From the NCBI RefSeq assembly GCF_000018105.1, contig NC_009925.1, positions 1,860,001-1,892,000 on the forward strand: a stretch of 32,000 nucleotides of DNA. Direction: 5' to 3'. The position numbers and the translations under genes are program-made. The stretch is from Acaryochloris marina MBIC11017. GTDB taxonomy: Bacteria; Cyanobacteriota; Cyanobacteriia; Thermosynechococcales; Thermosynechococcaceae. Shown here piece by piece: positions 2,751-24,175 of the stretch (the first letter of the stretch is position 1; every line of letters begins with the position of its first letter). A model generated the notes under the pieces. It did not search any database and had not been told where the DNA came from. It was given only the letters and a program-made list of their open reading frames with translations.

Positions 2751-3497
2751 CTAGAGCACCATTTCATTTTCTACAGCTGGCGGTGCTATGGGGATATCTG
2801 CACCGGGTTGAGACGATGGTGCATGGGAAGCACCCAAAAAGCGTTCATTGACTAGTTGTTGGAACGTAGCAACCGTTGATTGCCAAAGCTGAATCCGTTC
2901 GATGACATTCTGGACTCGTTTAATCCCCATATCTCCACGCACGGGATAATTAAAATTCCCGGAAAAGACGACTGCAGAAACCGATTGTCCATCTTGCCCT
3001 TTCAATTTGGCTTCGTTAATAGACAGGTTGAGCTGCCCTTGTTCCAGTACATAACTCAGCTGAATTGCCGCTTGAGCAGGCGCTTGGCCAAAGTCTTGCC
3101 AAGCCCCCTGAGCAAACAACTGGTGAAATAGAAACTCATGGGCTCCCCGATGATTGTCGAAGAAAGGGACGAGTCCTCGAGGGTTAACCCCCACCGCCAC
3201 ATAATCGGCATTCGGGAGTTTCTCCGCAAATCTAGCCGCCATCGAATTGATCAAAAATTGAGGCTGATCTTTAGAAGGAGCCACCTGAGCAAACGCCACC
3301 CGATTGGGCTGAGACGTAATGCGAACACCATTATCGTAAGAGATACGTGCACCACTATTCGAAATGACAGGCTGCTGATCGTACTGCCAATCCGAAGGCA
3401 CAATATCGCTGTACTTCAGAAAATCAGGATTGAGGATGGATGGGCTGAGATCTTTAGCGGCAATGATAATACTAATTTCTTGAATCGAAATACTCAT
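2751..3497 (-). CDS. Hypothetical protein, 248 aa (no family confidently recognised)
   Basis: Clean ATG-started ORF with ordinary, non-repetitive amino-acid composition. It lies 210 nt downstream of giant gene 1 on the same strand. The overlapping plus-strand ORFs (2880-3131, 3138-3572) look like antisense artefacts. Confidence 0.65.
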   Translation of the reverse strand: MSISIQEISIIIAAKDLSPSILNPDFLKYSDIVPSDWQYDQQPVISNSGARISYDNGVRITSQPNRVAFAQVAPSKDQPQFLINSMAARFAEKLPNADYVAVGVNPRGLVPFFDNHRGAHEFLFHQLFAQGAWQDFGQAPAQAAIQLSYVLEQGQLNLSINEAKLKGQDGQSVSAVVFSGNFNYPVRGDMGIKRVQNVIERIQLWQSTVATFQQLVNERFLGASHAPSSQPGADIPIAPPAVENEMVL

Positions 3498-3707: not shown

Positions 3708-6700
3708 CTAGACGGCTGAATAGTCTTGGATAGCTAGATCTGTCAGAGTCACCGTGACCCCTTTCAAAATTAACAGGGTCTGCTCTGAGCCATTCAAGGA
3801 GATGCGAGTATCGCCATCATCGGTTGAGGCGCTAAGTTGACCTAGGGTTAATCCGTCAGCAAGGCCTAAGATATCCTGGTCAACTTCAAAATCGAGGACG
3901 GTATCTTGGCCTTGACCGATTTCAAGGACAAACCAGTCTGCACCAGATCCACCCGACAGATGATCTCGCCCTCGGCCCCCGACTAAGGTATCATCCCCAG
4001 CCCCGCCAAAGAGCTTATCGGCTCCAGGACCACCCGTTAGCAAGTCGTTATCAGCCCCTCCGTAGAGGGTATCTCTACCTCGGCCACCTATCAGGGTGTC
4101 ATCGCCAGCCTCCCCTAGGAGACGATCTCGGCCTCGATTTCCTGCGATCTGATCATTGCCATCACGGCCAAAGAGGGTATCTCGGCCTCTCAAGCCTTTG
4201 ATATCATCTGCTTCAGCTGTTCCTCGCAGGACATCTCGACGGTTGGTGCCCGTAATTTCATTAAAGACAGGCACAACCGCATCAATGACGGTATCGTCCC
4301 TGAAATCGAGATTCTGAATCCGGGTATCTTCGGCAGGAGCGGTTTCTGAGGCAGCAAACGCAGGCGTGGCTGGATCTGCATCTGCAGGGAAGTTCGCAGC
4401 CAGGTACTCCGCTAAGGCATCTTGCTCGGTCCCTGGATCGGCAAAGGTAGCAGCGCCAGGATCCGTGAGCACGTCGGGTAAGTCAATCCGATTGGCCTCG
4501 GGTCCGGTGGGGAAGGGGTAACCATCACCGCCATCGGCTAGGAAATTAAGGGTGACAATGCGGAAGGTGCGGCTGGCATCGCCGACAATGTCTCCATTTT
4601 GGACCACAACATCAAGGTCATTGCCATTCTCATCCGTAATGGCTAAGGATTGCACCCGATCGCCAGCAGGTAAATCTGGATCAAAGCTGAACTGAATCCC
4701 CGCAATTTGGGGGAATTGGCCGGGAGTGGACCCATCAGCCGTTGCTGCCACACTATGCTCAATTACCGCTAACAACTGATCGGCAGTTAAAGTCAGCAGA
4801 GTCAGGCTGTTGTTAAAGCGGAGGGAGTTGTCAATATCGAGCTGAGAGATTTCACCTTCGGCTTTTCCAGAGATGGGGTTGGCCTGGGGCGGTAACTCAT
4901 TGCCGTTGGCATCAATTTCGCCAATGGGGGCTCGAATACCACCCCCGTTTTTCAGGGAAATCACGACGGTATCGTCAAAGGTTTTGGCGGCGGCCAAGTT
5001 GGCATCTGCGGTCAGGTTTCCTAGATTGGTCTCTTCCGTCCGCACACTTTCGCGGCGACCATCGATAAAGACTTCTGAAAGCCCAAAGACATTGCCATCT
5101 TGATCCGCTACCACATCAGAGACGGCATCGGTGAGCTGTTGAACGGCAGTCGCTTTGTCAGAGGATGCGATCGCATCTCCCACATCCGCCGTCCCATAGA
5201 CCGTATTGACGACCTCATCGGTGGTGGCATAGGCTCCACTCACCGCTGGATCCAGACTGTTGGTGAGGATATTGCCATCGGCATCGAAGTCTAATGCCAA
5301 GCGACCCAGATAGCTATATTCCCCATCGGTACTGACCACCAATACGGGATTGCCGCTGGCGTCTGTAGTTTCAAAGGGATAGTCTCCGGCGGCCACATCT
5401 CCGGGGCGGAGGACATCCATCGAGTCTGCCAGGAGGGTATCGGAGCCACCCGCAATAATCACATCAACGCCATCTAGGAGGCCCGCCAGTTCTTGCTCTA
5501 GGGCAAATTGCTGCAGGTGGGACACCAAAATAATTTTGTTAATGCCCAGATTGCGGAGGCGATCCACTTCTGGCTGGAGGATAGCCGCTAAGGCGGCCAT
5601 ATCATTAGTTTGTGGGCCAATTACCGTGGTGCCAGTGGGCGAGGAAATCGTTTCCAGTAACTGTGTCGTGGCCCCCAGTACACCAATCTGCTCACCGCCT
5701 TCTTCAATAATGGTGGATGGGGCAATTTTGGGGGTTGGTGTCCCGGCTAAAGATTGTTCGGGTCCGGTGCGGAAGGCGGTATTGACCAAGATGCCGTTGG
5801 TAAAGACATCACTTAAGTCGGCATCCCCGGAAAAATCGAGATTAGCGGACAGATAGGGGAACAAGGCTCCCACAGACCGATCGTCCCCTAGACCTGGATC
5901 GCGGAAGTCGGGTTCGATAATGCTTTCAAACGTATCTGACCCTAAATCAAATTCGTGGTTACCTACTGCCGAGGCATCAAAACCGATCAGGTTCATGATC
6001 GAGATATCGACACGACCGCCCCCTTCTCGCAAACCAGCATAGAAGTCGTCAATGGCATCGCCATCTAGATCGGCGGGTAAGCCGAACAGGTTGTTGTAGA
6101 GTTCATTGAACAAACCGCTATCGCGAAACGCGGTGCGATCGCCCGCCGCATTGAAGAAGGGACCAGCTAGATAGTTGTCGCCTGCCGACAGGATAACCGT
6201 GTTCTCGAACTCATCTTCAAAGAGGTCCGTTAGGGCCGCAAAGTTGGGGGCGCGACCGATGGCATCCACGCCGCCCTCTAAATCAGAAGCATGGAGAATT
6301 TGCAGGGTAAAGGTGCCGGAGCCGCTGCCGGGACCGCCTCCATTTCCGCCGCTGCCACCGCCATCCTCAAGGGTAAAACGACCCACAATCGGCTCATGGT
6401 CGCTGGCCACGATGGAGTCATCAAAGATGGCCTGACCATCATCTCGAACAAAGTCATTGTTGACATGAACAATATCAAATTCGGCCCCTGCTGCCAGGGC
6501 GTTGGTGGCAAACTGATGATCCAGTACTTGGGCATTGCCATCAAAGATAAAGGTGTAGGCATCATCGGTCTCGACGGCCTGGGGGACCAGACTGGTTAGG
6601 ACTTGTTCATCGCCGACTCCCGGCAAAATCTCTAGCAGATCGTTAGTCGTATCAAAGGTGTTCAGATCCCCCGCCACAATAATATTGGCGTCTGGATTGT

Positions 6701-9700
6701 CCGCTAATTGCGCATCTACAAAATCATTAACGGCTTGGGCCTGGGCTTCTCGGGCGTCTTCTCCAGCCTGGATAAAGGGTTGGGTGGCACCAAAAATCGG
6801 TGAAGACCCAAACCGGGATGAGAAGTGGTTGTTAATGACTTGCACTGTTTGACCGTTAAATTCGAAGTTGGCGGCCAAGGGCGTGCGGCTACCCTCAAAG
6901 GCATCAGGATTGCTGGCCCCTGCGGCGGCTAGCACTTCAGGCGTCAACAACTGCAGAGAGCTGTCATCAATAGAGACGCGGTCAGGGTTATAGAGGAAGG
7001 CATTGCGAATATTGCCACCGGGCTGCCCTCCAAAAGCGCCATCCTCCGGATCAATGGTGCGGAATTCATAGGTGGGGCCACCTGCGGCTGCAATCGCATC
7101 TACGAGCATTTGCAACGTTTGATCGGCAGCCGTCGTACCATCATCGACACTACCCGAGTTATCCTGAATCTCTTGCAAAGCAATGATGTCAGGTGCTTGA
7201 AGATTATTGACAATCTGGGCTGCTAAGCGATCAAACTGACCATTAGCGACATCCGTTGAACCATCCCCATCATTGGGGTCTAGGTTGAGAACGTTGTAGC
7301 TAGCCACCGTTAATTGGGTATCGGTGCCGACCAAGGTCGTGATTTCTGGCTCTAAGCCACTGGGAGTGGGGGTAAAGGCTTCAGTGACATTGACTTCAAA
7401 ATTGCCAAAGCTGTAGCCGACGACTCCGGTGACATCGCCGGGCTGATCGCCAACATTGAGACCAGGGGGTTCAAAGCCATCGGGGAGAAGATCCGGGTCA
7501 AACTGGATTTGAATCCGCTCAGGGTTTTGATCGCCCGTATTATTGGGTCCCGAGACCAGATTAAGGGTACCGCGATCGGTGAGGGCATCATCAGGAGAAA
7601 CATTTGCCCCCTGATTCGGGAGGGTAAAGGCTTCTGCCGAAAACCGGTTAAAGACCCGAGTCGGCGAGATCGCCACGGCATCTTCCACGGTGACCCGCAT
7701 GCCTTCAAGGCTTTCGAAGAAGTCAATGGCATCGTTCTCTGGATCGTACTCACCTGGATCCATTTGCAGATTCACGGGCAGCTCATCCGCGCTAATCACC
7801 GTATCGTTGGAGGGCAGACGGCCGTTCTCACCCAACACGGTGGCAGTGGGCAGCGCATTACCACTCGATAAGACTTCCACCGCATCCACACTCAGCTGTG
7901 TAATCGATAAGTTATTGGTGGAGGCCCCGCCAGGAATCAACTCTGACACCTGCCCCGTCAGTTCCAGTTCATCGCCAATATTGACGGTAGGGGCACTGCC
8001 CGTAAACACAAAAATGCCGTCGGAAGTGCGGTCATTACCGTCTCCAGCGGCATCTTGTAGGTAAAATCCATTGAAGTCAACGGCGGTAACGATGCCCGTG
8101 GTGGTAACCGTTTCTCCCTCGAATTCCGACAGATGGCCTTCACCCTGGATATCGAAGATCTTGACTTCAGGAATAAACTCGTAAACGGCGACGGTCTCGC
8201 TCTCTTCATTCGTGACCACCAGTAAGCTCTTGCCGTTAGGGCTGTCATCCGTACTAATAAAGGTCAATCCTTCTGGGGCAATATCGGCATCATCGCGGAT
8301 ATATTGCAGGAATTCTGGAGTAGTCGGATTGGTTACGTCATAGACCAGTACACCGCCCCCGGCTCGTTCTAGACCAATAAAAGCATAGGTACGGTTGCCC
8401 ACCTGACCGATGGTAACGGCTTCTGGCTCTGCCCCTTTGTTATCGGAGCGACTATCAAACTCAGCAGGGTCGCCATCATCGGCGTTGAATAGTTCTGGGG
8501 CTAGTTCCGCCGTAATTCTGGCGATTTGATCACCACTGTCGAATACTTGGTTGCCAACTTCATCCCAAATGCTAAAGGAGCGGCCCCCATAGGAAAACAG
8601 CTGGTCAAAGTCGCCATCGCCATCAATATCGCCGTCGATGGTGGAAACTTGCAGCCGCCCTAACTGATCTTCCTGTTGTAAGGTCGCTGCATCCGGGAAG
8701 GCAGTTGGATCGAGGGTTAGGTCGGCAATACGCGCATCTTCATCGCGGGCATCCCCTTCATTGGCAGTGATGTAGTAGGTTTTGCCGTCAATGGCGAAGG
8801 ATGCGATCGCATCCGGTTGATACAACCCAAACACTGGATGATTCTGCAGATTGATACCGCCATCGCGATCGCTCGGATCTAGCGTATTCCCCTCTCCAAA
8901 CTGAATAAAGCCCAGGGTGATGGGGGCTGGATCAGGATCTAGGAGAACACTGCCATCTAAGGGGATTTCACCGCCTGCTAAGGCAAAGTCATTATCATTC
9001 AGGACCACCAAGGTGCCATCGGGGAGTAAGGCTAAGCCTTCCGGTTTATCCCCCGCCAAATATCCGAGGGAGGGTAAATTGGTGGTTTTGATTTTGTTGA
9101 CGGGCTGAATACCAGCGGCAACTAAGGCATCTGCAGATTGCTGCTCTAGGGTGCCATTTTCAAAAATGCCAACTTCATCCTCATCGAGAGTGAGTAAATT
9201 GGTTGCAGCAGAGATATCGATCTCGAAGATAAACTTCTTGGCGGTATCACCCACGGCGAAATCCCGCTCAATCACATAGAATTTGCCATCCCCGGCAAAC
9301 ACGGCGTCCCCGATTTTGTCCACTCGCCCCCCGGAGCGCACTGCTGGGTCTTCCAAGAGATAAACGTATTCAGCGACGGGCTCACCCGTAGTTGTATCAA
9401 TCCCCAAGATGCGGATCACATCAGAATTATCAGAGGCGGCCCGATCAGGATTGGCCAGCGGGGTTTGGATAAAGGCATACAAGATACCGGTTTCATCATC
9501 TAGCGCGACGGCTTCAAACCCGCGATTTCGGCGGCGATTGATATATTCTGCGGGTAAGGTTTCCGTGCCAAAGGTGGCGGTCTCATTCTCCTGATCGTCC
9601 CCGCCGCCTGTCCCGGCCTGGGCTGCAGTCCCTTCGGGCACATACCGATTGAGCAGTACCCCTTCTGGTGAGAACTGGTAAATTGCCGGACGATACTCAT

Positions 9701-11489
9701 CCACCATCCAGAAATTACCGTTGGCATCCTTCAAAATGCCTTCAAAGTCGCCTCCAAAGGGATCAAAGGCCAGCGGATTACCAAATAAATCTACCGGCTG
9801 CTCATCAACGGCCTCATTATTGATATTGGAGCGCCCCGTAATCGGAGTACCGTCCCCTTGGGTGAGGAAAATCTGATCGGCAATGGTAACGCTGGTCAGA
9901 TCTGGGGTCACTTCTAATTTGACAATCCGAGCCTGATAATCCGGTAAGGCAAAGGGGCGCTCATTGATGCCATCCCCATCCACATCTAGGGTGTCAGGAT
10001 TAGGCCCCCGATCTGGAATCGTGTAAAAAATCAGATTGCCAGAGCTGGAATCGGTACCGCCATACCACAGTCCGGATAAGCCGCCCAACAGAATCTCTTG
10101 ACCGGCTGGCGTCGTCCCCAGGCTGGGTAAGTCGTCGAGGGTCAGCTGCGTCAGCTGGGCAGGCCCTCGACTAAAATCTTTGGTCCCCAAGGGCAGGATG
10201 TCCGTTACGGTTGCTGAGACGATATCCACCACGGCAAAGGCATTATTCTCCTGCAAGGTCACGAAGGCGGTGGTGCCGTCGGGGGAAATAGAGATAAATT
10301 CAGGTTCGACATCCTCAGAGGTGGTTTTATCAGGGAAGATCCGCACCCCTTTAGCTCGGAGTTCTGCTTCCCGGCCATCAAAGGCTGTGAAATCAGCCGT
10401 TTGTATGGATAGGTTGTCGAAACCTGCCGATAAATCAATAATGCTAATCGAGCCTGCTGGGTCAATATCGTCTTCAGGCTCGCCTTCATTCGCTACCAAC
10501 ACTTTGGTGCCATCAGGGGTAAAGGTGAGCATATCCGGTAGGGAACCCACTTCGATCTCACCCAGAAGTTCCCCATCGCTGTTGAGGAAAACCACGGTGC
10601 CGTTACTAGTGGCCGGATCGGCCTCAATTGCTACAGCAATAATGCCGTTCTGGATGGCAACGCTATTGGCCCCAGCCCCAAAGCTGGATAAGTCAATGGC
10701 GTCTAAGGCTTCAGGCTGGGTCGGATCCCTCAGATCCACGACCTGTAATTCCGTTTCCCCCGACACGACAAAGAGTTTTTGAGAGGCAGGGTCAAAGGCG
10801 TTAATTTCAGCCCCGTTGTCGAGGGTGACTCCCCCAATTTTGGTCAAGGGGCCATCCGAACCACCCGTTGGACCACCATTGCCGACCGTCAGAGAATCGG
10901 TGGGCAATGTCAGGGGGGAATTGCTTCCCGTCCAATTACTGGCATCACTAATCGCGGCCAAAAGTTCAGTGGGGGACCCCGTTACTGGACCGCTGTAGAC
11001 GGCGTTATCTACCTCTTGCGTGGGTCCAGCGCCTGCACCTACAGCAACTGCGGTAGTGCCGATTTCAAGGCCAGGGGGTAGCGCAGATGTGTTTGAAGAG
11101 GTTGCATCGGCCTGGAATTCCGTGCTGTTGGTCAGTAAGGCGAAGAGAAAGGTGGGGTCGGTGGAAAGGCCCTGGAAAGCAATAATTTGATCGCCACTGG
11201 TGGATAGGGAAAATCCACTGGTGCCTACTCCAGTATCATTATCGGCAGTGAAGTCGGCATTGTTTTTCACAAAATTGATGACCGTACCTGCGGTCAGAGC
11301 AGCTGGTGCAGTGTACTTCACGGCTCCTTCGTTGGCCCGAAAACTGCCATCACTGAGGACGCCACTATCGGTGAACCGAATTTCTGTACCTGCATCGATA
11401 TCGACGAGTAGGACAAAACTAAAGTCATCAGGATTATCAGCATTGATACCGATAATTGCGATGTCATCAGCAGAGAGGGAAGTAGCCAT
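3708..11489 (-). CDS. Giant secreted multidomain phosphoesterase: choice-of-anchor-I-like propeller + phytase-like esterase + ExeM/NucH-type EEP nuclease + 5'-nucleotidase-type metallophosphatase + RTX C-terminus
   Basis: Uninterrupted ORF, open up to TTG 11519. In-frame ATGs occur at 11495 and 11489; AGGA (11496-11499) sits 6 nt before ATG 11489, which is the start chosen here. That start gives MATSLSADD..., with no signal peptide. Domain motifs are listed in the sub-features. The C-terminus carries GGxGxD nonapeptides followed by a non-repeat tail. Confidence 0.95.
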   Translation of the reverse strand: MATSLSADDIAIIGINADNPDDFSFVLLVDIDAGTEIRFTDSGVLSDGSFRANEGAVKYTAPAALTAGTVINFVKNNADFTADNDTGVGTSGFSLSTSGDQIIAFQGLSTDPTFLFALLTNSTEFQADATSSNTSALPPGLEIGTTAVAVGAGAGPTQEVDNAVYSGPVTGSPTELLAAISDASNWTGSNSPLTLPTDSLTVGNGGPTGGSDGPLTKIGGVTLDNGAEINAFDPASQKLFVVSGETELQVVDLRDPTQPEALDAIDLSSFGAGANSVAIQNGIIAVAIEADPATSNGTVVFLNSDGELLGEIEVGSLPDMLTFTPDGTKVLVANEGEPEDDIDPAGSISIIDLSAGFDNLSIQTADFTAFDGREAELRAKGVRIFPDKTTSEDVEPEFISISPDGTTAFVTLQENNAFAVVDIVSATVTDILPLGTKDFSRGPAQLTQLTLDDLPSLGTTPAGQEILLGGLSGLWYGGTDSSSGNLIFYTIPDRGPNPDTLDVDGDGINERPFALPDYQARIVKLEVTPDLTSVTIADQIFLTQGDGTPITGRSNINNEAVDEQPVDLFGNPLAFDPFGGDFEGILKDANGNFWMVDEYRPAIYQFSPEGVLLNRYVPEGTAAQAGTGGGDDQENETATFGTETLPAEYINRRRNRGFEAVALDDETGILYAFIQTPLANPDRAASDNSDVIRILGIDTTTGEPVAEYVYLLEDPAVRSGGRVDKIGDAVFAGDGKFYVIERDFAVGDTAKKFIFEIDISAATNLLTLDEDEVGIFENGTLEQQSADALVAAGIQPVNKIKTTNLPSLGYLAGDKPEGLALLPDGTLVVLNDNDFALAGGEIPLDGSVLLDPDPAPITLGFIQFGEGNTLDPSDRDGGINLQNHPVFGLYQPDAIASFAIDGKTYYITANEGDARDEDARIADLTLDPTAFPDAATLQQEDQLGRLQVSTIDGDIDGDGDFDQLFSYGGRSFSIWDEVGNQVFDSGDQIARITAELAPELFNADDGDPAEFDSRSDNKGAEPEAVTIGQVGNRTYAFIGLERAGGGVLVYDVTNPTTPEFLQYIRDDADIAPEGLTFISTDDSPNGKSLLVVTNEESETVAVYEFIPEVKIFDIQGEGHLSEFEGETVTTTGIVTAVDFNGFYLQDAAGDGNDRTSDGIFVFTGSAPTVNIGDELELTGQVSELIPGGASTNNLSITQLSVDAVEVLSSGNALPTATVLGENGRLPSNDTVISADELPVNLQMDPGEYDPENDAIDFFESLEGMRVTVEDAVAISPTRVFNRFSAEAFTLPNQGANVSPDDALTDRGTLNLVSGPNNTGDQNPERIQIQFDPDLLPDGFEPPGLNVGDQPGDVTGVVGYSFGNFEVNVTEAFTPTPSGLEPEITTLVGTDTQLTVASYNVLNLDPNDGDGSTDVANGQFDRLAAQIVNNLQAPDIIALQEIQDNSGSVDDGTTAADQTLQMLVDAIAAAGGPTYEFRTIDPEDGAFGGQPGGNIRNAFLYNPDRVSIDDSSLQLLTPEVLAAAGASNPDAFEGSRTPLAANFEFNGQTVQVINNHFSSRFGSSPIFGATQPFIQAGEDAREAQAQAVNDFVDAQLADNPDANIIVAGDLNTFDTTNDLLEILPGVGDEQVLTSLVPQAVETDDAYTFIFDGNAQVLDHQFATNALAAGAEFDIVHVNNDFVRDDGQAIFDDSIVASDHEPIVGRFTLEDGGGSGGNGGGPGSGSGTFTLQILHASDLEGGVDAIGRAPNFAALTDLFEDEFENTVILSAGDNYLAGPFFNAAGDRTAFRDSGLFNELYNNLFGLPADLDGDAIDDFYAGLREGGGRVDISIMNLIGFDASAVGNHEFDLGSDTFESIIEPDFRDPGLGDDRSVGALFPYLSANLDFSGDADLSDVFTNGILVNTAFRTGPEQSLAGTPTPKIAPSTIIEEGGEQIGVLGATTQLLETISSPTGTTVIGPQTNDMAALAAILQPEVDRLRNLGINKIILVSHLQQFALEQELAGLLDGVDVIIAGGSDTLLADSMDVLRPGDVAAGDYPFETTDASGNPVLVVSTDGEYSYLGRLALDFDADGNILTNSLDPAVSGAYATTDEVVNTVYGTADVGDAIASSDKATAVQQLTDAVSDVVADQDGNVFGLSEVFIDGRRESVRTEETNLGNLTADANLAAAKTFDDTVVISLKNGGGIRAPIGEIDANGNELPPQANPISGKAEGEISQLDIDNSLRFNNSLTLLTLTADQLLAVIEHSVAATADGSTPGQFPQIAGIQFSFDPDLPAGDRVQSLAITDENGNDLDVVVQNGDIVGDASRTFRIVTLNFLADGGDGYPFPTGPEANRIDLPDVLTDPGAATFADPGTEQDALAEYLAANFPADADPATPAFAASETAPAEDTRIQNLDFRDDTVIDAVVPVFNEITGTNRRDVLRGTAEADDIKGLRGRDTLFGRDGNDQIAGNRGRDRLLGEAGDDTLIGGRGRDTLYGGADNDLLTGGPGADKLFGGAGDDTLVGGRGRDHLSGGSGADWFVLEIGQGQDTVLDFEVDQDILGLADGLTLGQLSASTDDGDTRISLNGSEQTLLILKGVTVTLTDLAIQDYSAV
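3934..4235 (-). repeat. Giant 1: about 10 RTX (GGxGxDxUx) calcium-binding nonapeptides, followed by a ~75-aa non-repeat C-terminus (3711-3933)
   Basis: LFGRDGNDQ IAGNRGRDR LLGEAGDDT LIGGRGRDT LYGGADNDL LTGGPGADK LFGGAGDDT LVGGRGRDH LSGGSGADW, then FVLE...DTVLDFEVDQDILGL. Confidence 0.85.
4440..6312 (-). other. Giant 1 domain: 5'-nucleotidase/UshA-type metallophosphatase plus C-terminal nucleotide-binding domain (approximate bounds)
   Basis: Follows a GGGSGGNGGGPGSGSG linker (about 6313-6370). Motifs: FTLQILHASDLEGG, ILSAGDNYLAGP, AVGNHEFDLG, IILVSHLQ, IIAGGSDT, TNLGNLTADA, ISLKNGGGIR, IVTLNFLADGGDGY. Confidence 0.7.
6375..8175 (-). other. Giant 1 domain: ExeM/NucH-type extracellular nuclease (OB-like N-part about 7320-8175; endonuclease/exonuclease/phosphatase fold about 6375-7315)
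   Basis: OB-like part: KIFDIQGEGHLSEFEGETVTTTGIVTAVDFNGFYLQD..SDGIFVF..IGDELELTGQVSE. EEP part: LTVASYNVLNL, DIIALQEIQD, GDLNTF, ASDHEPIVGRF. Confidence 0.7.
8190..8885 (-). other. Giant 1 domain: choice-of-anchor-I-like fold, second part (approximate bounds)
   Basis: LDPSDRDGGINL, GLYQPDAIASF, YYITANEGDARDED, GGRSFSIWD, DSRSDNKGAEPEAVT, YAFIGLERAGGGVLVYDV, APEGLTFI, LLVVTNEESETVAVYEF. Confidence 0.6.
8890..10100 (-). other. Giant 1 domain: phytase-like esterase segment (approximate bounds)
   Basis: LLGGLSGLWYGG, FEGILKDANGNFWMVDEYRPAIYQF, NRGFEAVALDD, VDKIGDAVFAGDGKFYVIERD, DKPEGLALLPDGTLVVLNDNDF. Confidence 0.6.
10170..10850 (-). other. Giant 1 domain: choice-of-anchor-I-like beta-propeller, first part (approximate bounds)
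   Basis: AEINAFDPASQKLFVVSG, NSVAIQNGIIAVAIEA, GSLPDMLTFTPDGTKVLVANEGEP, EPEFISISPDGTTAFVTLQENNAFAVVDI, ending LGTKDFS. Confidence 0.6.
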
Positions 11490-11617
11490 GAGCATTCCTA
11501 AGCAAACAGTAAAAAACAACCTGAAAACTTAATCGTCTTCAGAAGAGACCTAAATATGAGCAATTTTTCGGCTGCTTAATTTAGAGCCGAAGTAGTAATG
11601 AGTGAATTGAGAAAGTA

Positions 11618-11662
11618 GATTCTTCGTTAACCGTAAATATTGCCATCCCCCAACGAAGAATC
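11618..11662. repeat. Perfect 11-bp inverted repeat GATTCTTCGTT / AACGAAGAATC with a 23-nt spacer, in the leader/promoter region of giant 1
   Basis: Read directly: arms at 11618-11628 and 11652-11662, about 130-170 nt upstream of ATG 11489. Confidence 0.6.
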
Positions 11663-11696
11663 ATGCACGTGAGAAGCACTCCCAAAGTATTTGTCC

Positions 11697-11724
11697 AGCA
11701 GTATTAAAAACGTCTAATACTGCT
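11697..11724. repeat. Perfect 10-bp inverted repeat AGCAGTATTA / TAATACTGCT with an 8-nt loop, upstream of giant 1
   Basis: Read directly: arms at 11697-11706 and 11715-11724. Confidence 0.6.
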
Positions 11725-12423
11725 TTAGAAGTACCGTCAGTAAGCCTCGCAGAGGGATGTAAAGACGAGCTAAACTAAAGATTAAGAAGGCTTCTAGTTG
11801 CGGTTAAGTTTTGATTATGTTGAAAAAAACAAAAATAAACTAAGTTATTTCTTAATGCTTTGCAGAATATCGAAATAATCTACCCACACTTTGCCCAGGC
11901 TAAAAAGTAAATTTGAAATTCTAAATCTTTGGTAGCTATTCTGTCTTTCTCTTCGCTTTTATATTGGGTGTTTGCAGTAGACAGGAAGATAACTATTTAA
12001 GTAATAGTTGCTTTCTTTTTTTTAGAAAAGTAACCAATAAAATACAGCGGTTTTACCGCTAAAAGATCTCTATTTTGATGACTACTTTGTGGAGGACTGA
12101 TTCTTATTAAAAAAATGAGGATATATTTTTGTGTGAATCAAAAGCTATCAACGTCAAAATTGCAGTCCCCAAGCGTTCTACATCATTATTAAATGAATAA
12201 ATATTAAGTTCAACTGGGTTAGCATCTGTGCTCAAGGATATTTCTGTATATGAGTACAGATTCGCTACCTTATTTATTGCGTGAATTAATCTGTCTTTAT
12301 TGTCTTTTAATACTTTTGAATATCGAATTTATTCTCTATGACGAGTTTAGATTAATCTTTAATGAAGAAGCGTTAACCTATAGGATGTTTAGCGCCTTAT
12401 TCTGTATGAATTTATACATCTTT

Positions 12424-19180: not shown

Positions 19181-22100
19181 CTAGACAATCTGGATCTGGC
19201 CTGCACCCAAATTCGCTTTGTTGAGCAAGGTGCCCACCAGAATCTGCTGAGCTGCACCACTCCCATCCGCATCGTAAAACAGCTCACCGTTAGCTTGATC
19301 GTAGATAAATCGCTGCTCTGCAGTGGTCGCTGCGGCCCCCAGAGCAAACTGCTGAGCGGAGATTAGACCTAGAGGGAGGGTATTGAGCTGGGCAGAACGG
19401 AATGCGATCGCATCTTCACCCACCACAAAATCAGCAATCGTGCCCTTATTGTTAGCGGTGGCCTCTAAAACAAAGAGATCGCTGCCGCCGCCACCCACGA
19501 GATAATCTTGTCCAGCACCACCGGTCAGGGAATCATCTCCATCGCCACCATTTAAGTTATCGTTGCCATAGGATCCCCAGAGGATATCATTGCCCTCATG
19601 GCCGCTGAGGGAGTCCTCGCCATAGGCACCGTTGAGGTGGTCATCCCCTAGGCTTCCCCCTAAATAATCATCTCCATCGCCCCCATCGAGGGTATCCTTG
19701 CCTTCGCCTCCCCAGAGGGTGTCATGGCCTTGATGGCCTCGGAGAAAATCATTTCCACGGTAGCCATCTAGGGTATCGTCTCCCCAGCTTCCCCCCAGAT
19801 AGTCATCGCCATCGCCCCCTTGGAGGCTATCATCGCCATTGGCCCCCCACAGGTGGTCATCTCCTTCGTGACCATTGAGAGTGTCATTCCCATTGCCACC
19901 ATCCAGGCGATCATCCCCTAAACTCCCGCCTAAATAGTCATTACCATCTAGACCCTGGAGGGTATCATTGCCCGCAGCTCCCCAGAGGGTGTCATTCCCA
20001 TCATGACCATTCAGGGAGTCATGACCGTCTCCCCCATCTAAATTATCGTCACCATAGGACCCCCAAAGGGTGTCATCTCCTTCATGACCATTGAGGGTGT
20101 CATTACCCCGATGGCCATTGAGGTGGTCATTGCCTAAACTCCCGCCAAGGTAGTCTTCCCCCTCTCCACCATCGAGGGTGTCCTCACCTTCTCCACCCCA
20201 GAGGGTGTCATTCCCTTGATGCCCCCGGAGAAAATCGTTACCACGGTATCCATCGAGGGTATCGCTGCCCCAACTACCGCCTAGGTAGTCGTTGCCGTCA
20301 CCGCCTTGGAGGCTATCATCCCCATTGGCCCCCCACAGGTGGTCGTCTCCTTCGTGACCATTCAGGGTGTCATTTCCATTGCCGCCATCCAGGCGATCCT
20401 TACCTAAACTCCCCCCTAAGGAATCATTACCTTCTCCCCCATGCAGGGTGTCCTCACCTTCGCCACCCCATAGGGTGTCATCGCCTTGATGGCCGTTTAG
20501 GGAATCATTGCCGCGATAGCCATCCAGGGTATCACTACCCCAGCTACCGCCTAGGTAGTCATCTCCATCTCCACCGATCAGGTTGTCGTCTCCCTCGGCG
20601 CCCCACAGATGGTCATTGCCCTCATGGCCATGGAGGAAGTCATTCCCCTTGCCACCATTGAGGTGGTCATCCCCTAAACTGCCCCCTAAATTGTCATCCC
20701 CCTCTCCCCCATCGAGGGTATCCTTACCTTCGCCACCCCAAAGGGTGTCATTGCCTTGGTGGCCCCGGAGAAAATCATTACCGCGATAGCCATCCAGGGT
20801 ATCACTGCCCCAGCTGCCGCCTAGGTAGTCGTTGCCGTCACCGCCTTGGAGGCTATCATCGCCATTGGCACCCCACAAATGGTCATCTCCTGCATAGCCA
20901 TGGAGAAAGTCATCTCCATCCCCTCCATCCAGCCGATCGTCTCCTGCATGACCTGCTAAATAGTCATCTCCGTCCAGCCCTTTGAGGGTATCATTACCAT
21001 CCCCCCCGTAGAGTTTGTCATCCACGGCTCCACCGGAGCCATTGTCATCAAAGGCCGTCCCTCGAAAAATCAGAGGCAGGGTGTCAATACGAGTCGTACT
21101 AACAGGCACAGGATTGACGGAACCATCCCCTGTGAGCAAAATATTATCGACCGCAACCCAGTCATCTCCATCATTGGTCCCCACTGTATTGATTTGGAAG
21201 ACTAAAAATTGGTAGCCCTCACCAAAATCGATATCCCAAGAGAGGGTTGTCCAATCAAAGTCATCGCCGCCAAAGGTCTGTTGAACTAGGACCTGACGCT
21301 CCATGGGTAATGCACCCGCCTGGTAAGGCCCCTGGTTGGTATTGGCGTTGTTAAAAAACTCGCCATTCACCCCCCACAGACTAATCGTAATTTCGTTATT
21401 TTCTCCAGTGCCGCCTTCCAGATTGCGCAAGTCCAGGCTGAGGGTTTGCATCCCTCGTCGCACCGCACTGTCGTAGATAATTTGTCCAAGATTGGAACGA
21501 CTCGCCGCTTCCTGGGAGAGGACCACGCCCCCGCCTTGACCAATACCAGCATCCCAGGAGACGCCATCAGCTGCGTACCATCCTAAGTTGGCACTCGTAC
21601 TATGGTTGATACCGTCCGTTTTAAAGACTGGATTGACGGAAAAATCGCCATTACCAAACGCATTGACATATTGAGTTGGCGTCACCTCAATGGTTTGCGA
21701 GAGGGAGCGAGTCGCCCCATATTCATCCCAAATCTGTAGGGTAATGTTATGGGAGCCGGCTTTGTCAAAAACATAGCTCGTTTGGCGACCAAAGCGATCC
21801 GCCACATTGTCCCCATCAAAATCCCAGGCATAACTTACAATTCCCCGACTTGGGTTATCGATAAATGTCGAATCTGGATCAAAAGAGGAGCTGGCATCAA
21901 AGCCCATCGCCAGTCCCCCAATGGCTTGACTGGTAAATAGAACCGAGGGGGCTAAGTTGCCAGGGACATCTGAAAACGTATTATTGCCCTGAATCTGAAA
22001 GAAAGAGGGGAAGTCTGGATCCTTAATCGTGATATGGGGCGGTGTCAGGCCAAAATGCTGGTCATTATTGACTAGAGTGCTATCTTTTAGCGAAGACCCC

Positions 22101-24076
22101 ACAAAATCCCTATCAGCATCGTAGGGGACCGCTATACCGGTCTTAAAGCCTTCAATATGCAGATTGATGTATCGCTGCTCTAACGAAGTGTCATTGACAT
22201 GAACCCCTGTGCCAATGGGTTGACCAGAATGAATTAACCCATTGATGAGGTCAACATTACCGCTATACCGTAAGAGCACCCCATTGTGGCGAATATTCCA
22301 CAGGGCAAAATTATCAATTACGGACCGATAATCATGGGCCGTAAAGGTGGGCACACTGATGTTTAACTGGCCATCTTGATTGGTCTTGCGAGCCCAAAGG
22401 CTAATACCCGATTTTGAGTTATAGCTCTGAAAACCACTGAGTTTCCGTAATGGCACCGCCGCTACATCAATCGTACTCTCGTCTGCAGTACCTTTAGCGA
22501 TATCCTGCAAATCCGGTGGCAGAATGTTGACATCGATGGTTTGTGCATCGCGAACGGATTCTGTGCCGGCGTCAAGCCCCAACAGTTCGATGGCAGATCC
22601 AGCGGCACTCACGGCAATATTATCAATGATGGCAACCTGAGCCGCCCCTTGCACCCAATAGCCATCGCCATTAAAGCCAAAATCAAAGAGATTGGTGCGA
22701 GGAGATAAAGGATTAATATCATGGCTGGGGCTGGCATCCCCGGTGGTTTTGATGGTCAGATTGTTGCGCCAAGTGCCAATTTCGTTCCCCGACTCGGCAA
22801 CAATGCCTGCCCCCACCACATCAAAGACGACATTATCTTCTAGGACTGCATGACTATCGTGGTGGACAATCCCCCAACCCGGACTGCCAACGACGGCATT
22901 GCCTTGGGCCACAGCGGGAATGCCATTAATATCCTCAGCACCGGTCCGATGGAAATGGAGGGCATACCGACCTCTGGGATTGGTCCCTGTACCGACGGAA
23001 CCATCCACGTTCTGGCCAGGATCATCGACGATTAAATTCTTATCAGAACGGCCTAAATTATAAAAACCAGCATTGAGCACCTTAACATCAGCATTGTGCA
23101 TAAACATGACGTGTCCACGCTGCTGATTCGGAATTTGATCTGCATTCTCCGTCTCAAACACAACATTGCGGCTGGTATTCGCAATATACAAATTCACCTG
23201 ATCTTGTAATCCGTCAGGCCTTTTATGATCAAATCGGAGAACCGAGTTATCTCCAGTCAAAATATTGTTGTTCGTAAACCGAATTCGATTGCCGTTGATT
23301 TCTGTAATCGTCAGCACTTCATCCTGAAAACGGGTGTTATCGGCATTGGAGCCTCTCCAGTTGTAGGCCGTACCGCCCAAAACAAGCTGATCGCCGACTT
23401 TCCAGCCCAAGGGGCCACTCGCTCCGTCCAGCTTGAGCACCAGCTCGTTATCCCCAGCCATGGGATCCTGCTCTAGAGCCACAAAATCTAATTTTTCGGC
23501 ACCGTAGATTCTGGCTTTACCATGGCTGATCAAACCTCGGCTGAGCTGCCTTGGGTCCCACTGGGTATCGATGGGACTATCACTGGTAAAGGTGATTCGG
23601 GTGGTGACATCGGCTTGGACCGGATTATCTTCCGTACCAATCAGCAATATCCCTGACGGCGAAACAGCAAAGGTATCTAGCAATAGCTGCGTATCTTGAT
23701 CCGAAGAAAATTGGAGGGTGCCATCTACTCGTAGCGTATCAATGCGGGCAGCACTCTCTTGGTCATAGGTAACCTTGACCCCGTGGGCAATCACAACTTT
23801 GGCGTCATCACCAGGGATCTGCCCACCTTCCCAGGTATTGGGGTCAAACCATGATCCATCCCGTATCGCTTTGTGGGTGGCTTGGGAATGGGGGACGAGA
23901 TCCAAAAAAGCTGCGTGCTCATGTTGTTTGCCTGGATTATCTGCATGGGGTTGCCCCATCCCCCCATGAGACATGGGGTGGGCCGTATTTGGTGTATGAG
24001 ACATACCAGAGGTATGTGAAGCACCAGAAGTATGTGCAGTACCCGGTGTGTGTGATGTGTGTTGATGAGTTTGCAT
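19181..24076 (-). CDS. Giant secreted RTX protein: His-rich N-terminus, G8 domain, right-handed beta-helix, PKD domain, jelly-roll-like domain, about 57 RTX nonapeptides
   Basis: The ORF is open to TTG 24124. The first ATG is 24076 (MQTHQHTSH...), and the 48-nt extension would encode the HIP1 palindrome. Domain evidence is in the sub-features. Confidence 0.95.
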   Translation of the reverse strand: MQTHQHTSHTPGTAHTSGASHTSGMSHTPNTAHPMSHGGMGQPHADNPGKQHEHAAFLDLVPHSQATHKAIRDGSWFDPNTWEGGQIPGDDAKVVIAHGVKVTYDQESAARIDTLRVDGTLQFSSDQDTQLLLDTFAVSPSGILLIGTEDNPVQADVTTRITFTSDSPIDTQWDPRQLSRGLISHGKARIYGAEKLDFVALEQDPMAGDNELVLKLDGASGPLGWKVGDQLVLGGTAYNWRGSNADNTRFQDEVLTITEINGNRIRFTNNNILTGDNSVLRFDHKRPDGLQDQVNLYIANTSRNVVFETENADQIPNQQRGHVMFMHNADVKVLNAGFYNLGRSDKNLIVDDPGQNVDGSVGTGTNPRGRYALHFHRTGAEDINGIPAVAQGNAVVGSPGWGIVHHDSHAVLEDNVVFDVVGAGIVAESGNEIGTWRNNLTIKTTGDASPSHDINPLSPRTNLFDFGFNGDGYWVQGAAQVAIIDNIAVSAAGSAIELLGLDAGTESVRDAQTIDVNILPPDLQDIAKGTADESTIDVAAVPLRKLSGFQSYNSKSGISLWARKTNQDGQLNISVPTFTAHDYRSVIDNFALWNIRHNGVLLRYSGNVDLINGLIHSGQPIGTGVHVNDTSLEQRYINLHIEGFKTGIAVPYDADRDFVGSSLKDSTLVNNDQHFGLTPPHITIKDPDFPSFFQIQGNNTFSDVPGNLAPSVLFTSQAIGGLAMGFDASSSFDPDSTFIDNPSRGIVSYAWDFDGDNVADRFGRQTSYVFDKAGSHNITLQIWDEYGATRSLSQTIEVTPTQYVNAFGNGDFSVNPVFKTDGINHSTSANLGWYAADGVSWDAGIGQGGGVVLSQEAASRSNLGQIIYDSAVRRGMQTLSLDLRNLEGGTGENNEITISLWGVNGEFFNNANTNQGPYQAGALPMERQVLVQQTFGGDDFDWTTLSWDIDFGEGYQFLVFQINTVGTNDGDDWVAVDNILLTGDGSVNPVPVSTTRIDTLPLIFRGTAFDDNGSGGAVDDKLYGGDGNDTLKGLDGDDYLAGHAGDDRLDGGDGDDFLHGYAGDDHLWGANGDDSLQGGDGNDYLGGSWGSDTLDGYRGNDFLRGHQGNDTLWGGEGKDTLDGGEGDDNLGGSLGDDHLNGGKGNDFLHGHEGNDHLWGAEGDDNLIGGDGDDYLGGSWGSDTLDGYRGNDSLNGHQGDDTLWGGEGEDTLHGGEGNDSLGGSLGKDRLDGGNGNDTLNGHEGDDHLWGANGDDSLQGGDGNDYLGGSWGSDTLDGYRGNDFLRGHQGNDTLWGGEGEDTLDGGEGEDYLGGSLGNDHLNGHRGNDTLNGHEGDDTLWGSYGDDNLDGGDGHDSLNGHDGNDTLWGAAGNDTLQGLDGNDYLGGSLGDDRLDGGNGNDTLNGHEGDDHLWGANGDDSLQGGDGDDYLGGSWGDDTLDGYRGNDFLRGHQGHDTLWGGEGKDTLDGGDGDDYLGGSLGDDHLNGAYGEDSLSGHEGNDILWGSYGNDNLNGGDGDDSLTGGAGQDYLVGGGGSDLFVLEATANNKGTIADFVVGEDAIAFRSAQLNTLPLGLISAQQFALGAAATTAEQRFIYDQANGELFYDADGSGAAQQILVGTLLNKANLGAGQIQIV
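19476..21016 (-). repeat. Giant 2: about 57 uninterrupted RTX nonapeptides (27-nt period) with a 10-unit (270-nt) higher-order repeat
   Basis: Manual parse from LYGGDGNDT to LVGGGGSDL. At DNA level, 20281-20320 and 20821-20860 are identical 40-mers. Near-identical blocks recur at offsets of 270, 486 and 540 nt (e.g. 19741.. vs 20227.. vs 20767..; 20511.. vs 20781..). Confidence 0.9.
21680..21860 (-). other. Giant 2 domain: PKD domain
   Basis: IVSYAWDFDGDNVADRFGRQTSYVFDKAGSHNITLQIWDEYGATRSLSQTIEVTP (the WDFGDG-type core motif). Confidence 0.75.
21950..23490 (-). other. Giant 2 domain: right-handed parallel beta-helix region (approximate bounds)
   Basis: Successive short beta-helix-like turns, e.g. 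GNAVVGSPGWGIVHHDSHAVLEDNVVFDVVGAGIVAESGNEIGTWRNNLTIKT and IIDNIAVSAAGSAIEL. Confidence 0.55.
23492..23866 (-). other. Giant 2 domain: G8 domain (approximate bounds)
   Basis: DGSWFDPNTWEGGQIPGDDAKVVIAHGVKVTYDQES..IDTLRVDGTLQF..LLLDTFAVSPSGILLIGTEDNP fits the G8 pattern (W..W.gg.vP..gd.V.I..g..v.lD....l..l.v.G.L.f). Confidence 0.65.
23906..24076 (-). repeat. Giant 2: His-rich N-terminal low-complexity segment with five consecutive hexads [S/A]-H-T-[P/S]-[G/N]-x
   Basis: MQTHQHTSHTPGTAHTSGASHTSGMSHTPNTAHPMSHGGMGQPHADNPGKQHEHAAF: 11 His in 57 residues, with His at positions 9, 15, 21, 27 and 33. Confidence 0.8.
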
Positions 24077-24085
24077 AGAAAACTG

Positions 24086-24105
24086 GATCTTGCGATCGCA
24101 AGATC
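24086..24105. repeat. 20-bp perfect palindrome GATCTTGCGATCGCAAGATC built around a HIP1 core, 10 nt upstream of ATG 24076
   Basis: Read directly; the HIP1 octamer is at 24092-24099. Confidence 0.8.
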
Positions 24106-24175
24106 TCCCCCAAAAAAAGATCAAAGTCTGGTCCTACGACGTCAGCGATAGCAACCAGTGAACAAATTTTTTACT

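Follow-up and report, generated by a model that had tools for sequence, protein, structure and literature searches.

What would a cyanobacterium gain from a protein of 2,593 amino acids that carries several phosphoesterase-type modules on a single chain? The question is raised by a stretch of 32,000 nucleotides from Acaryochloris marina MBIC11017 (NC_009925.1, positions 1,860,001 to 1,892,000; the window, below, means this whole stretch), in which one giant gene runs on the minus strand. This gene probably encodes a secreted, calcium-dependent, multi-enzyme scavenger of phosphorus that fuses the enzyme types of the phoA-nucH system and adds a phytase-like esterase. A phosphate scavenger had been proposed in an initial annotation of the locus, and the proposal draws support from profile matches to the modules, from active-site residues, from a promoter array, from composition and from the type I secretion genes that lie beside a relative. 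The giant gene amounts to a fused version of Pho-regulon enzymes that are already known, not to a novel type of system, and its family is widely if blandly annotated. What is new is the histidine-to-carboxylate site of the nucleotidase, an unnamed family of N-terminal domains, the permutation and mosaic exchange of modules, and a conserved leader.

The open reading frame (ORF) is uninterrupted, as had been noted from the letters alone; translation of 3708..11519 on the minus strand meets no internal stop and gives 2603 codons counting from TTG. There are three possible starts, TTG 11519, ATG 11495 and ATG 11489. The last is likely to be the true one, because the called products in five orthologous loci open with MATSLSA, the residues encoded from ATG 11489 in the window, and the nucleotide context at the start, TTTAGGAATGCTCATGGCTACT, is invariant in orthologous loci, which further upstream diverge or hold stops. 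A GGA 7 nt 5′ of this ATG is also conserved among orthologs. TTG 11519, which would add a short hydrophobic N-terminus, was rejected for the stops and divergence that orthologs show there and for the conserved GGA-N7-ATG at 11489. The product from ATG 11489, from which residues are numbered throughout, has a mass of 271 kDa. Its features are as follows:

3708..11489, minus strand: coding sequence of the giant gene (stop codon 3708-3710; likely start ATG 11489)
10875..11474, minus strand: N-terminal all-beta domain of ~200 amino acids (residues 6-205)
10092..10853, minus strand: choice-of-anchor I propeller, part 1 (residues 213-466)
8985..10088, minus strand: phytase-like esterase propeller, PF13449, nested in choice-of-anchor I (residues 468-835)
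8178..8918, minus strand: choice-of-anchor I propeller, part 2 (residues 858-1104)
6384..8102, minus strand: OB-fold and EEP (DNase I-like) nuclease, by NF033681 and SpnA alignment (residues 1130-1702)
6315..6362, minus strand: Gly/Ser linker GGGSGGNGGGPGSGSG of 16 amino acids between nuclease and nucleotidase (residues 1710-1725)
4476..6308, minus strand: 5′-nucleotidase-family module, by PF02872 and PRK09419 models (residues 1728-2338)
Within the nucleotidase: variant dimetal site, D1736-x-E1738, D1771, N1844-H1845, H1991 and G-G-S-D2017
3927..4196, minus strand: ten RTX calcium-binding nonapeptide repeats, counted with a GGxGxDxxx regular expression (residues 2432-2521)
3711..3926, minus strand: non-repeat C-terminal tail of 72 amino acids, at the position expected of a type I secretion signal

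Domains were called by Pfam and NCBIfam profile scans with curated cut-offs. In profile order the chain consists of a split choice-of-anchor I domain with a nested Phytase-like domain, an OB-fold plus EEP nuclease, a 5′-nucleotidase and RTX repeats. These modules stand in the order that the initial annotation had given, save for a Metallophos match that it expected; it had staked its proposal on at least three phosphoesterase families, and the profiles find four distinct phosphoesterase-type modules. The matches that it predicted to PF13449, PF03372, PF02872, PF00353 and choice-of-anchor I were obtained, the ExeM/NucH match came out below its cut-off and that to PF00149 did not appear. The N-terminal part that it left unassigned is indeed a separate domain of ~200 amino acids without a Pfam match, the Gly/Ser linker is where it was placed, and the estimate of about ten RTX repeats with a non-repeat tail agrees with the count. 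It went too far in implying that the architecture is rare, as this is common in cyanobacterial genomes and already annotated. It also knew of no characterised protein with the full combination; in the literature no paper characterising a protein with this chain was found.

The nuclease module matches Exo_endo_phos (PF03372) at 42.7 bits against a threshold of 24.5, and the ExeM_NucH model NF033681 at 188 bits across model positions 1-541 of 546. It matches the SpnA structures 9SF8/9SF9 from S. pyogenes at E=1.2e-78, in an alignment that spans OB3-OB4-NUCL. The EEP motifs NVLNL, LQE, GDLN and SDHEP, picked out by eye at the start, are all present. The catalytic set comprises E1440, R1535, H1555, D1608, N1610, D1657 and D1697-H1698. 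In SpnA the essential or substrate-binding residues are E592, R696, H716, D767, N769, D810 and D842 (PMC13601614), and all seven, placed via the offset between structure-chain and protein numbering, are identical here. Because of this strong homology to SpnA and the intact catalytic residues, the module is a credible Mg/Ca-dependent DNase.

The module that follows the linker matches 5_nucleotid_C (PF02872) at 89.1 bits (threshold 23.6), and its N-terminal half is visible only via the NCBIfam PRK09419 models and alignments to structures in the Protein Data Bank (PDB). The best full-module matches are to NCBIfam models of YfkN-type multifunctional nucleotidases, at 134 bits against an equivalog cut-off of 2554, and one ortholog is annotated 'YfkN'. 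The UshA equivalog NF007109 scores 53.5 bits against a cut-off of 600. The nearest solved relative is human CD73 (E=7e-35), followed by the Thermus enzyme 2Z1A (the two within E ~1e-32 to 1e-35), with UshA itself at E ~2e-7. The initial description as a UshA-type 5′-nucleotidase thus holds for the 5′-nucleotidase family, on the strength of PF02872 and an Arg/Phe clamp, and fails for UshA, since the CD73 and Thermus enzymes are closer. In an alignment with CD73 (a sequence that the aligned PDB segments corroborate in part), residues D36, D85, N117-H118-x-x-D121, H220, R354, R395, F417, F500 and D506 are kept. Three of the five metal ligands are therefore among the retained residues, as are both stacking phenylalanines and both arginines of the substrate domain. 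Of the calcineurin-like motifs the module retains GD, GNHE and the single His, with DxE in place of DxH and GGSD in place of GHxH; by these changes and by the absent profile match it falls outside PF00149. Across homologs, 74 modules carry the first motif as [SAT]D[LQ]EG and 84 carry the last as GGS[DN]T. Such replacements are conserved and patterned across the clade and are therefore not random decay; the dN/dS of the nucleotidase (the ratio of nonsynonymous to synonymous substitution rates) is 0.03-0.05, as low as that of the nuclease. We infer that the nucleotidase is an active enzyme in which both metal sites exchange a nitrogen ligand for oxygen ligands.

The choice-of-anchor I domain is recognised by PF22494 (407 bits against a cut-off of 32) and NF038117 (560 bits against 300) in two stretches that jointly cover the profile, the second running from position 236 to 488 of 489 in the Pfam model and from 214 to 458 of 458 in the NCBIfam model. 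Between them PF13449 matches from position 3 to 284 of 284 at 154.8 bits (cut-off 27.6), so that both the choice-of-anchor I propeller and the phytase-like esterase of the initial annotation are confirmed. In homologs that lack the insert the two halves (A1 and A2) are contiguous. The phytase-like domain (PHY) mostly lies between the halves (A1-PHY-A2) or is missing, and it follows A2 in 2 of the 120 best homologs, the set to which all architecture counts refer. Because homologs carry it between the halves or not at all, the phytase-like domain reads as an optional unit inserted into a loop of the propeller that encloses it; its dN/dS is 0.05. AlphaFold2 models residues 215-1110 as beta-propeller blades, mostly with high confidence. 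A Foldseek search with the model of residues 1-1110 returned generic double beta-propellers only (WD40, DDB1, YVTN; TM ~0.13-0.14), and no match to PhoX or a phytase was extracted from it. The predicted structure confirms that two propellers are present and nothing more specific.

Judged from the literature, the choice-of-anchor I propeller seems to correspond to the domain found in a family of atypical alkaline phosphatases, PhoA-aty. Those of dinoflagellates match marine-animal proteins and no more than a part of the large PhoA-aty proteins of cyanobacteria (PMC4548154), and the animal MSP130 proteins carry choice-of-anchor I, described as a seven-bladed barrel with predicted calcium sites (PMC11878542). 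ACAAP, a dinoflagellate PhoA-aty and the one recombinant member tested, has alkaline phosphatase activity that Ca, Mg and Mn stimulate and Zn does not (PMC6723241). The P-induced 'atypical alkaline phosphatase' of Nodularia bears the annotation of a phytase-like-esterase family protein (PMC9846622). Psip1, a propeller alkaline phosphatase that sometimes occurs with phytase-like domains, was considered as an identity for the propeller and set aside, as its authors report no conserved domain.

The C-terminal end and the overall composition point to export by a type I system. The RTX block matches HemolysinCabind (PF00353) at 109 bits in 6 stretches, and the tail behind it is kept in collinear orthologs with a dN/dS of 0.14-0.26. 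The 2,593 residues include 0 Cys, 11 His, 30 Lys and 429 Asp plus Glu, with a pI of ~4.05. At least seven of the 11 histidines are catalytic or metal-binding in the nuclease and nucleotidase, or flank such motifs. Homologs of 1,800-3,300 amino acids (set P0001-P0112) have 0-1 Cys and 10-18 His. The prediction that translation from ATG 11489 would leave no signal peptide is borne out, the protein opening with MATSLSADD and passing straight into a domain. Substrates of type I systems with RTX repeats fold upon meeting extracellular Ca2+. From its composition, the absent signal peptide and the RTX block with its tail, the giant protein fits a type I secretion substrate. A homolog on plasmid pAQ7 of Picosynechococcus PCC 7002, which consists of the N-terminal domain, an EEP nuclease and a 5′-nucleotidase, lies 1.4 kb from genes for a C39-peptidase ATP-binding cassette (ABC) transporter and HlyD, a candidate dedicated type I secretion system. 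Two phosphate-limitation transcriptome reports make no mention of this homolog. On the plasmid (L007 12372-16875) the relative is annotated ExeM/NucH and is followed by a peptidyl-prolyl isomerase, a cyclic-nucleotide (cNMP)-binding C39-peptidase ABC transporter and an HlyD adaptor. The window itself holds a second large RTX protein of 1,647 amino acids (19181..24124, minus strand), with a G8 domain, a CEMIP-like beta-helix, PKD and 23 RTX Pfam stretches.

Upstream of the giant gene lies a repeated motif that suggests when the protein is made:

11757..11830, minus strand: Pho-box-like array, seven 8-mers phased at 11 bp, 268-341 nt 5′ of the start

The boxes read GTTTTTTT, CATAATCA, CTTAACCG, CTAGAAGC, CTTAATCT, GTTTAGCT and CTTTACAT. 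They resemble the SphR motif, which in Synechocystis is YTTAAYYW in repeats with 3-nt spacers (PMC13226834, PMC1906773), and published cyanobacterial phoA and nucH boxes such as CATAATCT and CTTTACCG (PMC1906773). Of the three best three-box matches on both strands of the window, two fall upstream of the giant gene, on its own strand and mutually in register, and the six-box phased array has a P of ~0.01 against dinucleotide shuffles. The array recurs at the same distance in the orthologous loci L001 and L003-L006, and at -434 in L002 (A. thomasi). Across orthologous loci the cores TTAA, CTTAA and TTTAC are invariant and spaced 22 bp apart, and conservation amounts to 0.87 in the box cores, 0.71 in the linkers and 0.53 in the upstream flank. 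Judged by motif and conservation, the giant gene is likely to be under Pho (SphR) control. Weak Pho-box-like matches also occur in an AT-rich region at 24.1-25.1 kb (GC 0.35), upstream of the gene for the 1,647-residue RTX protein.

The orthologs and more distant homologs show how the chain has been assembled and kept. A search of 5.8 billion proteins returned collinear orthologs of the same architecture in many independent assemblies, at 94% to ~46% identity; those with the full architecture include P0001-P0013, P0021, P0022 and P0081, and the genomes that carry orthologs include two Acaryochloris metagenome-assembled genomes and A. thomasi RCC1774. Five orthologous loci have the same flanks, with sbtA-sbtB-dapL diverging upstream and a 246-residue ORF downstream. 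SbtA is a bicarbonate transporter, and its presence, with the relatives found, is in keeping with an Acaryochloris-like cyanobacterium. In a codon-level comparison with the closest ortholog (dS ~0.4-0.6), dN/dS is 0.03-0.10 for every module, and the Gly/Ser linker is the least constrained segment (0.45 against L001). All modules are under strong purifying selection and none is decaying. Because collinear orthologs occur in independent assemblies and selection is purifying, the ORF is neither a chance frame nor the assembly chimera that the initial annotation had named as a risk. The proportion of G and C at third codon positions (GC3) is 0.535 in the gene, inside the 0.41-0.58 range of its neighbours, and horizontal acquisition was dropped as an account of the gene, as its composition gives no signal of transfer.

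Choice-of-anchor I, EEP nuclease and 5′-nucleotidase stand together in one chain in 87 of the 120 best homologs. The phytase-like insert is present in 54 of these 87, and 30 of the 54 have RTX repeats as well. With choice-of-anchor I written A, EEP E and nucleotidase N, the orders A-E-N, E-A-N, N-A-E and A-N-E are all seen. Since the fusion recurs in every order, the homolog sequences argue that selection acts on co-occurrence in one chain, whatever the order of modules. Identity is uneven along the chain. With L004 the phytase-like domain and the first half of the propeller share 76-80% identity (dS 1.7-2.6) and the rest 93-96% (dS 0.3-0.6), and against A. thomasi (L002) the nucleotidase is 83-84% identical and the other modules 55-68%, a pattern which suggests that whole modules recombine between lineages. 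On plasmid pVV8 of Thermus thermophilus HB8 (L008 3785-8501) a stand-alone PF13449 gene lies 11 bp upstream of an ExeM/NucH gene (PKD, EEP and LTD domains), and by analogy this pair can be regarded as an operon-level counterpart of the fusion.

The closest known system is the phoA-nucH pair of Synechocystis PCC 6803 (sll0654-sll0656), which comprises an atypical large alkaline phosphatase and the extracellular nuclease NucH. These are adjacent, separate genes that form an operon of the Pho regulon activated by SphR (PMC1906773, PMC3600050). Its tandem YTTAAYYW boxes with 3-nt spacers lie 150-310 nt upstream (PMC1906773, PMC3600050, PMC13226834), and the array in the window is comparable. Where Synechocystis makes two polypeptides, however, the window encodes one chain, to which a phytase-like insert, an extra N-terminal domain and an RTX tail are added. 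PhoA of Synechococcus PCC 7942, dinoflagellate ACAAP, EHAP1 of E. huxleyi and metazoan MSP130 have been likened to one another as a PhoA-aty group and, from their descriptions, apparently share choice-of-anchor I. Unlike the protein in the window, they lack a nuclease module, and the eukaryotic members are single-domain proteins with a glycosylphosphatidylinositol anchor. Ray et al. in 1991 are said to have described the PCC 7942 enzyme as a 145-kDa protein with similarity to UshA and no cleavable signal peptide.

The nuclease module resembles SpnA, an enzyme of the ExeM/NucH/Xds type whose OB3-OB4-EEP region runs collinear with residues 1130-1702. Catalysis by SpnA depends on Mg2+ and its stability on Ca2+ (PMC13601614); unlike the protein in the window, SpnA is an LPXTG-anchored virulence factor of a Gram-positive bacterium and carries no fused phosphatases. 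The nucleotidase shares with CD73, Thermus 2Z1A, E. coli UshA and B. subtilis YfkN (itself a fusion of two 5′-nucleotidase modules) the two-domain 5′-nucleotidase fold, the GNHEFD motif and the Arg/Phe clamp. It departs from that family in having D-x-E for D-x-H, GGSD for GGHSN, and an insertion of ~45 amino acids between GD and GNHE. As a pathway, the release of phosphate from extracellular DNA (eDNA) by a nuclease together with a nucleotidase or phosphatase is established in V. cholerae and P. aeruginosa (PMC4714964, PMC4899797). V. cholerae uses Xds/Dns with UshA, CpdB and PhoX, and P. aeruginosa uses the DNase EddB with EddA; the logic resembles that proposed for the fusion, in that a secreted nuclease acts before a nucleotidase or phosphatase, and both routes are induced by phosphate starvation. 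These routes differ in relying on separate proteins, on Sec/Tat plus type II export and on other phosphatase families (PhoX, PhoD). P. aeruginosa EddA was entertained as a PF13449 protein operon-linked to a DNase, and dropped as the literature calls it PhoD-type; it is a functional analogue only. Finally, serralysin proteases, lipases and polyurethanases are RTX enzymes with the same C-terminal GGxGxD repeats and tail, an acidic composition, few or no cysteines and no N-terminal signal. Such enzymes usually have one catalytic domain and lie beside ABC and membrane fusion protein (MFP) genes, whereas the giant protein has four catalytic-type modules.

Taken together, these likenesses outline how a phosphorus scavenger of this kind may work. 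Under phosphate starvation SphR (PhoB) would bind the phased array ~270-340 nt upstream and turn on transcription, as motif and conservation suggest. The 271-kDa chain would then be exported unfolded by a type I system that reads its C-terminal tail, a step to which composition, architecture and the gene neighbourhood of a relative point, and would fold outside the cell as Ca2+ binds the ten RTX repeats. The OB-fold/EEP nuclease would bind eDNA, possibly also RNA, and cut it into 5′-phosphorylated products, from which the CD73-like module, with its nucleotide-binding residues intact and its metal site altered, may release nucleosides and inorganic phosphate by hydrolysing 5′-mononucleotides. 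The choice-of-anchor I and nested phytase-like propellers may strip phosphate from other mono- and diesters, to judge by their families. A single chain would fix the ratio of the activities and keep the intermediates local in open water.

Several observations weigh against a secreted phosphorus scavenger. No type I secretion (ABC/MFP) genes were found in the 32-kb window. A three-box match alone has P=0.52 in the AT-rich spacer, and the conservation of the boxes is only modestly specific, because the entire promoter and leader region is conserved among orthologs. The NF033681 score of the nuclease is below the curated cut-off of 300, which makes the module one of OB plus EEP type, yet not a member by the NCBI threshold; the ExeM/NucH type claimed at the outset stands as to the whole-model match and the catalytic residues, not as to the score. 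In the nucleotidase, CD73 H38 is replaced by E, H243 by G and N245 by D, with the loss of two histidine metal ligands, and no match to Metallophos (PF00149) occurs in the giant protein at E<=0.01. Because of these two replaced ligands and the absent match, neither activity nor metal is assured, and the module might be inactive or of different specificity. The link from choice-of-anchor I to alkaline phosphatase is indirect and runs through statements in the literature (PMC4548154, PMC11878542, PMC9846622). A demonstrated substrate was not found in the literature for any PF13449 member, and all that is said of the function of the giant protein is inferred.

The alternative that survives best takes up the altered metal site. 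Only some modules would be enzymes, and the 5′-nucleotidase-like module, perhaps together with the propellers, would consist of dead domains that bind nucleotides, DNA or calcium on behalf of the nuclease. The replacement of two histidine ligands and the missing Metallophos match speak for this, as do the lack of an established PF13449 substrate and the discussion of MSP130 as calcium-binding biomineralisation proteins rather than enzymes (PMC11878542). Decay should not, however, leave D-x-E-G in 74 modules and GGS[DN]T in 84, nor preserve the catalytic His and Asp, the remaining ligands and every substrate-binding residue at a dN/dS of 0.03-0.05, and recombinant PhoA-aty is active as a phosphatase (PMC6723241). 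Dead modules are thus improbable, if the least so among the alternatives.

The protein may instead serve mainly to remodel or clear eDNA, in the dispersal of biofilms and mats, in escape from DNA traps or in limiting transformation, with the phosphatases merely tidying up the products. Acaryochloris-like cyanobacteria inhabit mats and biofilms, which counts for this idea. Among solved structures the nuclease comes closest to SpnA, a DNase that acts in virulence at the cell surface (PMC13601614), and secreted nucleases reclaim matrix eDNA in biofilms (PMC11458576). Matrix remodelling, however, has no need of a Pho-box-like array or of systematic fusion with three kinds of phosphate-releasing module, and the homologous enzymes of other cyanobacteria belong to the phosphate-starvation regulon (PMC1906773, PMC9846622). 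A role chiefly in eDNA clearance is accordingly given little credence.

Cyanobacteria have many structural, surface-layer and adhesion RTX proteins, and the giant protein could be one of these, its enzyme-like domains serving as calcium-binding scaffolds, for instance in calcification. It is very acidic, has RTX repeats, lies near a second large RTX protein and is linked to MSP130 (PMC11878542). Against this stand an intact nuclease active site and a nearly intact nucleotidase site, the mere ten RTX repeats in 2,593 residues, and a set of modules that is exactly that of known phosphorus-starvation enzymes, so that a purely structural protein is very unlikely. An assembly chimera or fusion artefact of neighbouring genes is raised only by the size and modularity of the gene, with nothing found in its favour, and is scarcely believable in view of full-length collinear orthologs in more than 12 independent assemblies (94% to 46% identity), the same flanks in five loci and purifying selection across all module junctions.

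Beside these known enzyme types stands the N-terminal domain, one of the new elements of the chain. Residues 6-205 have no Pfam match even at E=10 and no sequence match in the PDB, while 2,951 cluster representatives (50% identity clusters) match the domain at E<=1e-3. The family consists mostly of 'hypothetical' extracellular proteins in which the domain is found alone or in tandem. Its partners elsewhere are PEP-CTERM or type IX secretion system (T9SS) tails, Big_5, fn3 and, repeatedly, EEP nucleases; the NucH homolog of PCC 7002 carries it before the nuclease. AlphaFold2, given an alignment of 65 sequences, models it as mostly beta with a predicted local distance difference test (pLDDT) of 95.2 and a predicted template modelling score (pTM) of 0.90. 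In the run on residues 1-1110 its pLDDT was below 50, and it is modelled well only with its own deep alignment. A Foldseek comparison of this high-confidence model with PDB and BFVD gave no significant neighbour, the best E being 0.16 and 0.07, respectively. Among orthologs the domain is confined to the closest, at a dN/dS of 0.05-0.06, and P0005, P0007 and P0008 pass from MATSLSA straight into the propeller. Its partner domains allow the guess that it binds DNA or a surface.

A bolder proposal goes beyond the scavenger of known enzyme types and joins four ideas, namely that the chain is a zinc-independent, hard-metal (Ca/Mg/Mn) machine for turning eDNA into phosphate, that the variant nucleotidase site is a new metal-site class in the calcineurin-like superfamily, that the N-terminal domain represents a novel fold for binding DNA or a surface and pairs repeatedly with NucH-type nucleases, and that the modules are shuffled among cyanobacteria as recombining cassettes. 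On this view one His ligand at each metal position gives way to a carboxylate arrangement (D-x-E; GGSD), in parallel with the calcium dependence of the PhoA-aty propeller and with the almost complete absence of His and Cys from the protein. As a joint claim it is speculative and would have to be called doubtful.

In microbial mats and in waters poor in phosphate, dissolved organic phosphorus and eDNA form major reservoirs of the element. Choice-of-anchor I and PF13449 are both barely characterised, and their fusion to a DNase and a nucleotidase argues, in the manner of a Rosetta stone, that they share one pathway with these enzymes. The fusion is also a compact route to learning what the two families hydrolyse. 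The conserved His-to-carboxylate changes, in a protein with hardly any His and no Cys, suggest that it is adapted to scarce trace metals, a topical issue in work on marine alkaline phosphatases. Genes of this kind, at present labelled 'choice-of-anchor I family protein' or 'hypothetical', belong in metagenomic surveys of phosphorus acquisition.

Between the array and the start codon the gene has a leader of ~240 nt (11490..11730, minus strand) with 75% mean column identity over six loci, far above what non-coding DNA would lead one to expect. Neither the window nor the conserved leader has a match in Rfam. Two features stand out here:

11618..11662, minus strand: 11-bp inverted repeat GATTCTTCGTT ... 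AACGAAGAATC, invariant in six aligned orthologous leaders
11520..11543, minus strand: terminator-like hairpin with a T-run, between leader and start codon

The inverted repeat could form a hairpin in the RNA or serve as a palindromic site for a protein; since the stem does not vary, there is no covariation by which to judge pairing in RNA. The arms of the terminator-like hairpin, CTGAA..TTCAG, are recognisable in L001 and L003-L005. The leader as a whole could be an attenuator, a riboswitch-like element or the site of a second regulator.

Downstream, an ORF of 248 amino acids (2751..3497, minus strand) lies 210 bp beyond the giant gene and corresponds to the syntenic 246-residue ORF of the five orthologous loci. 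It has no Pfam or NCBIfam match, and the gap that separates it from the giant gene showed no terminator-like site. In A. thomasi RCC1774 (PQWO01000013; L002 18312-23936) the ortholog is directly followed by another RTX giant of 1,874 amino acids, whose domains are a classical alkaline phosphatase (PF00245), two phytase-like domains and a GDPD glycerophosphodiesterase.

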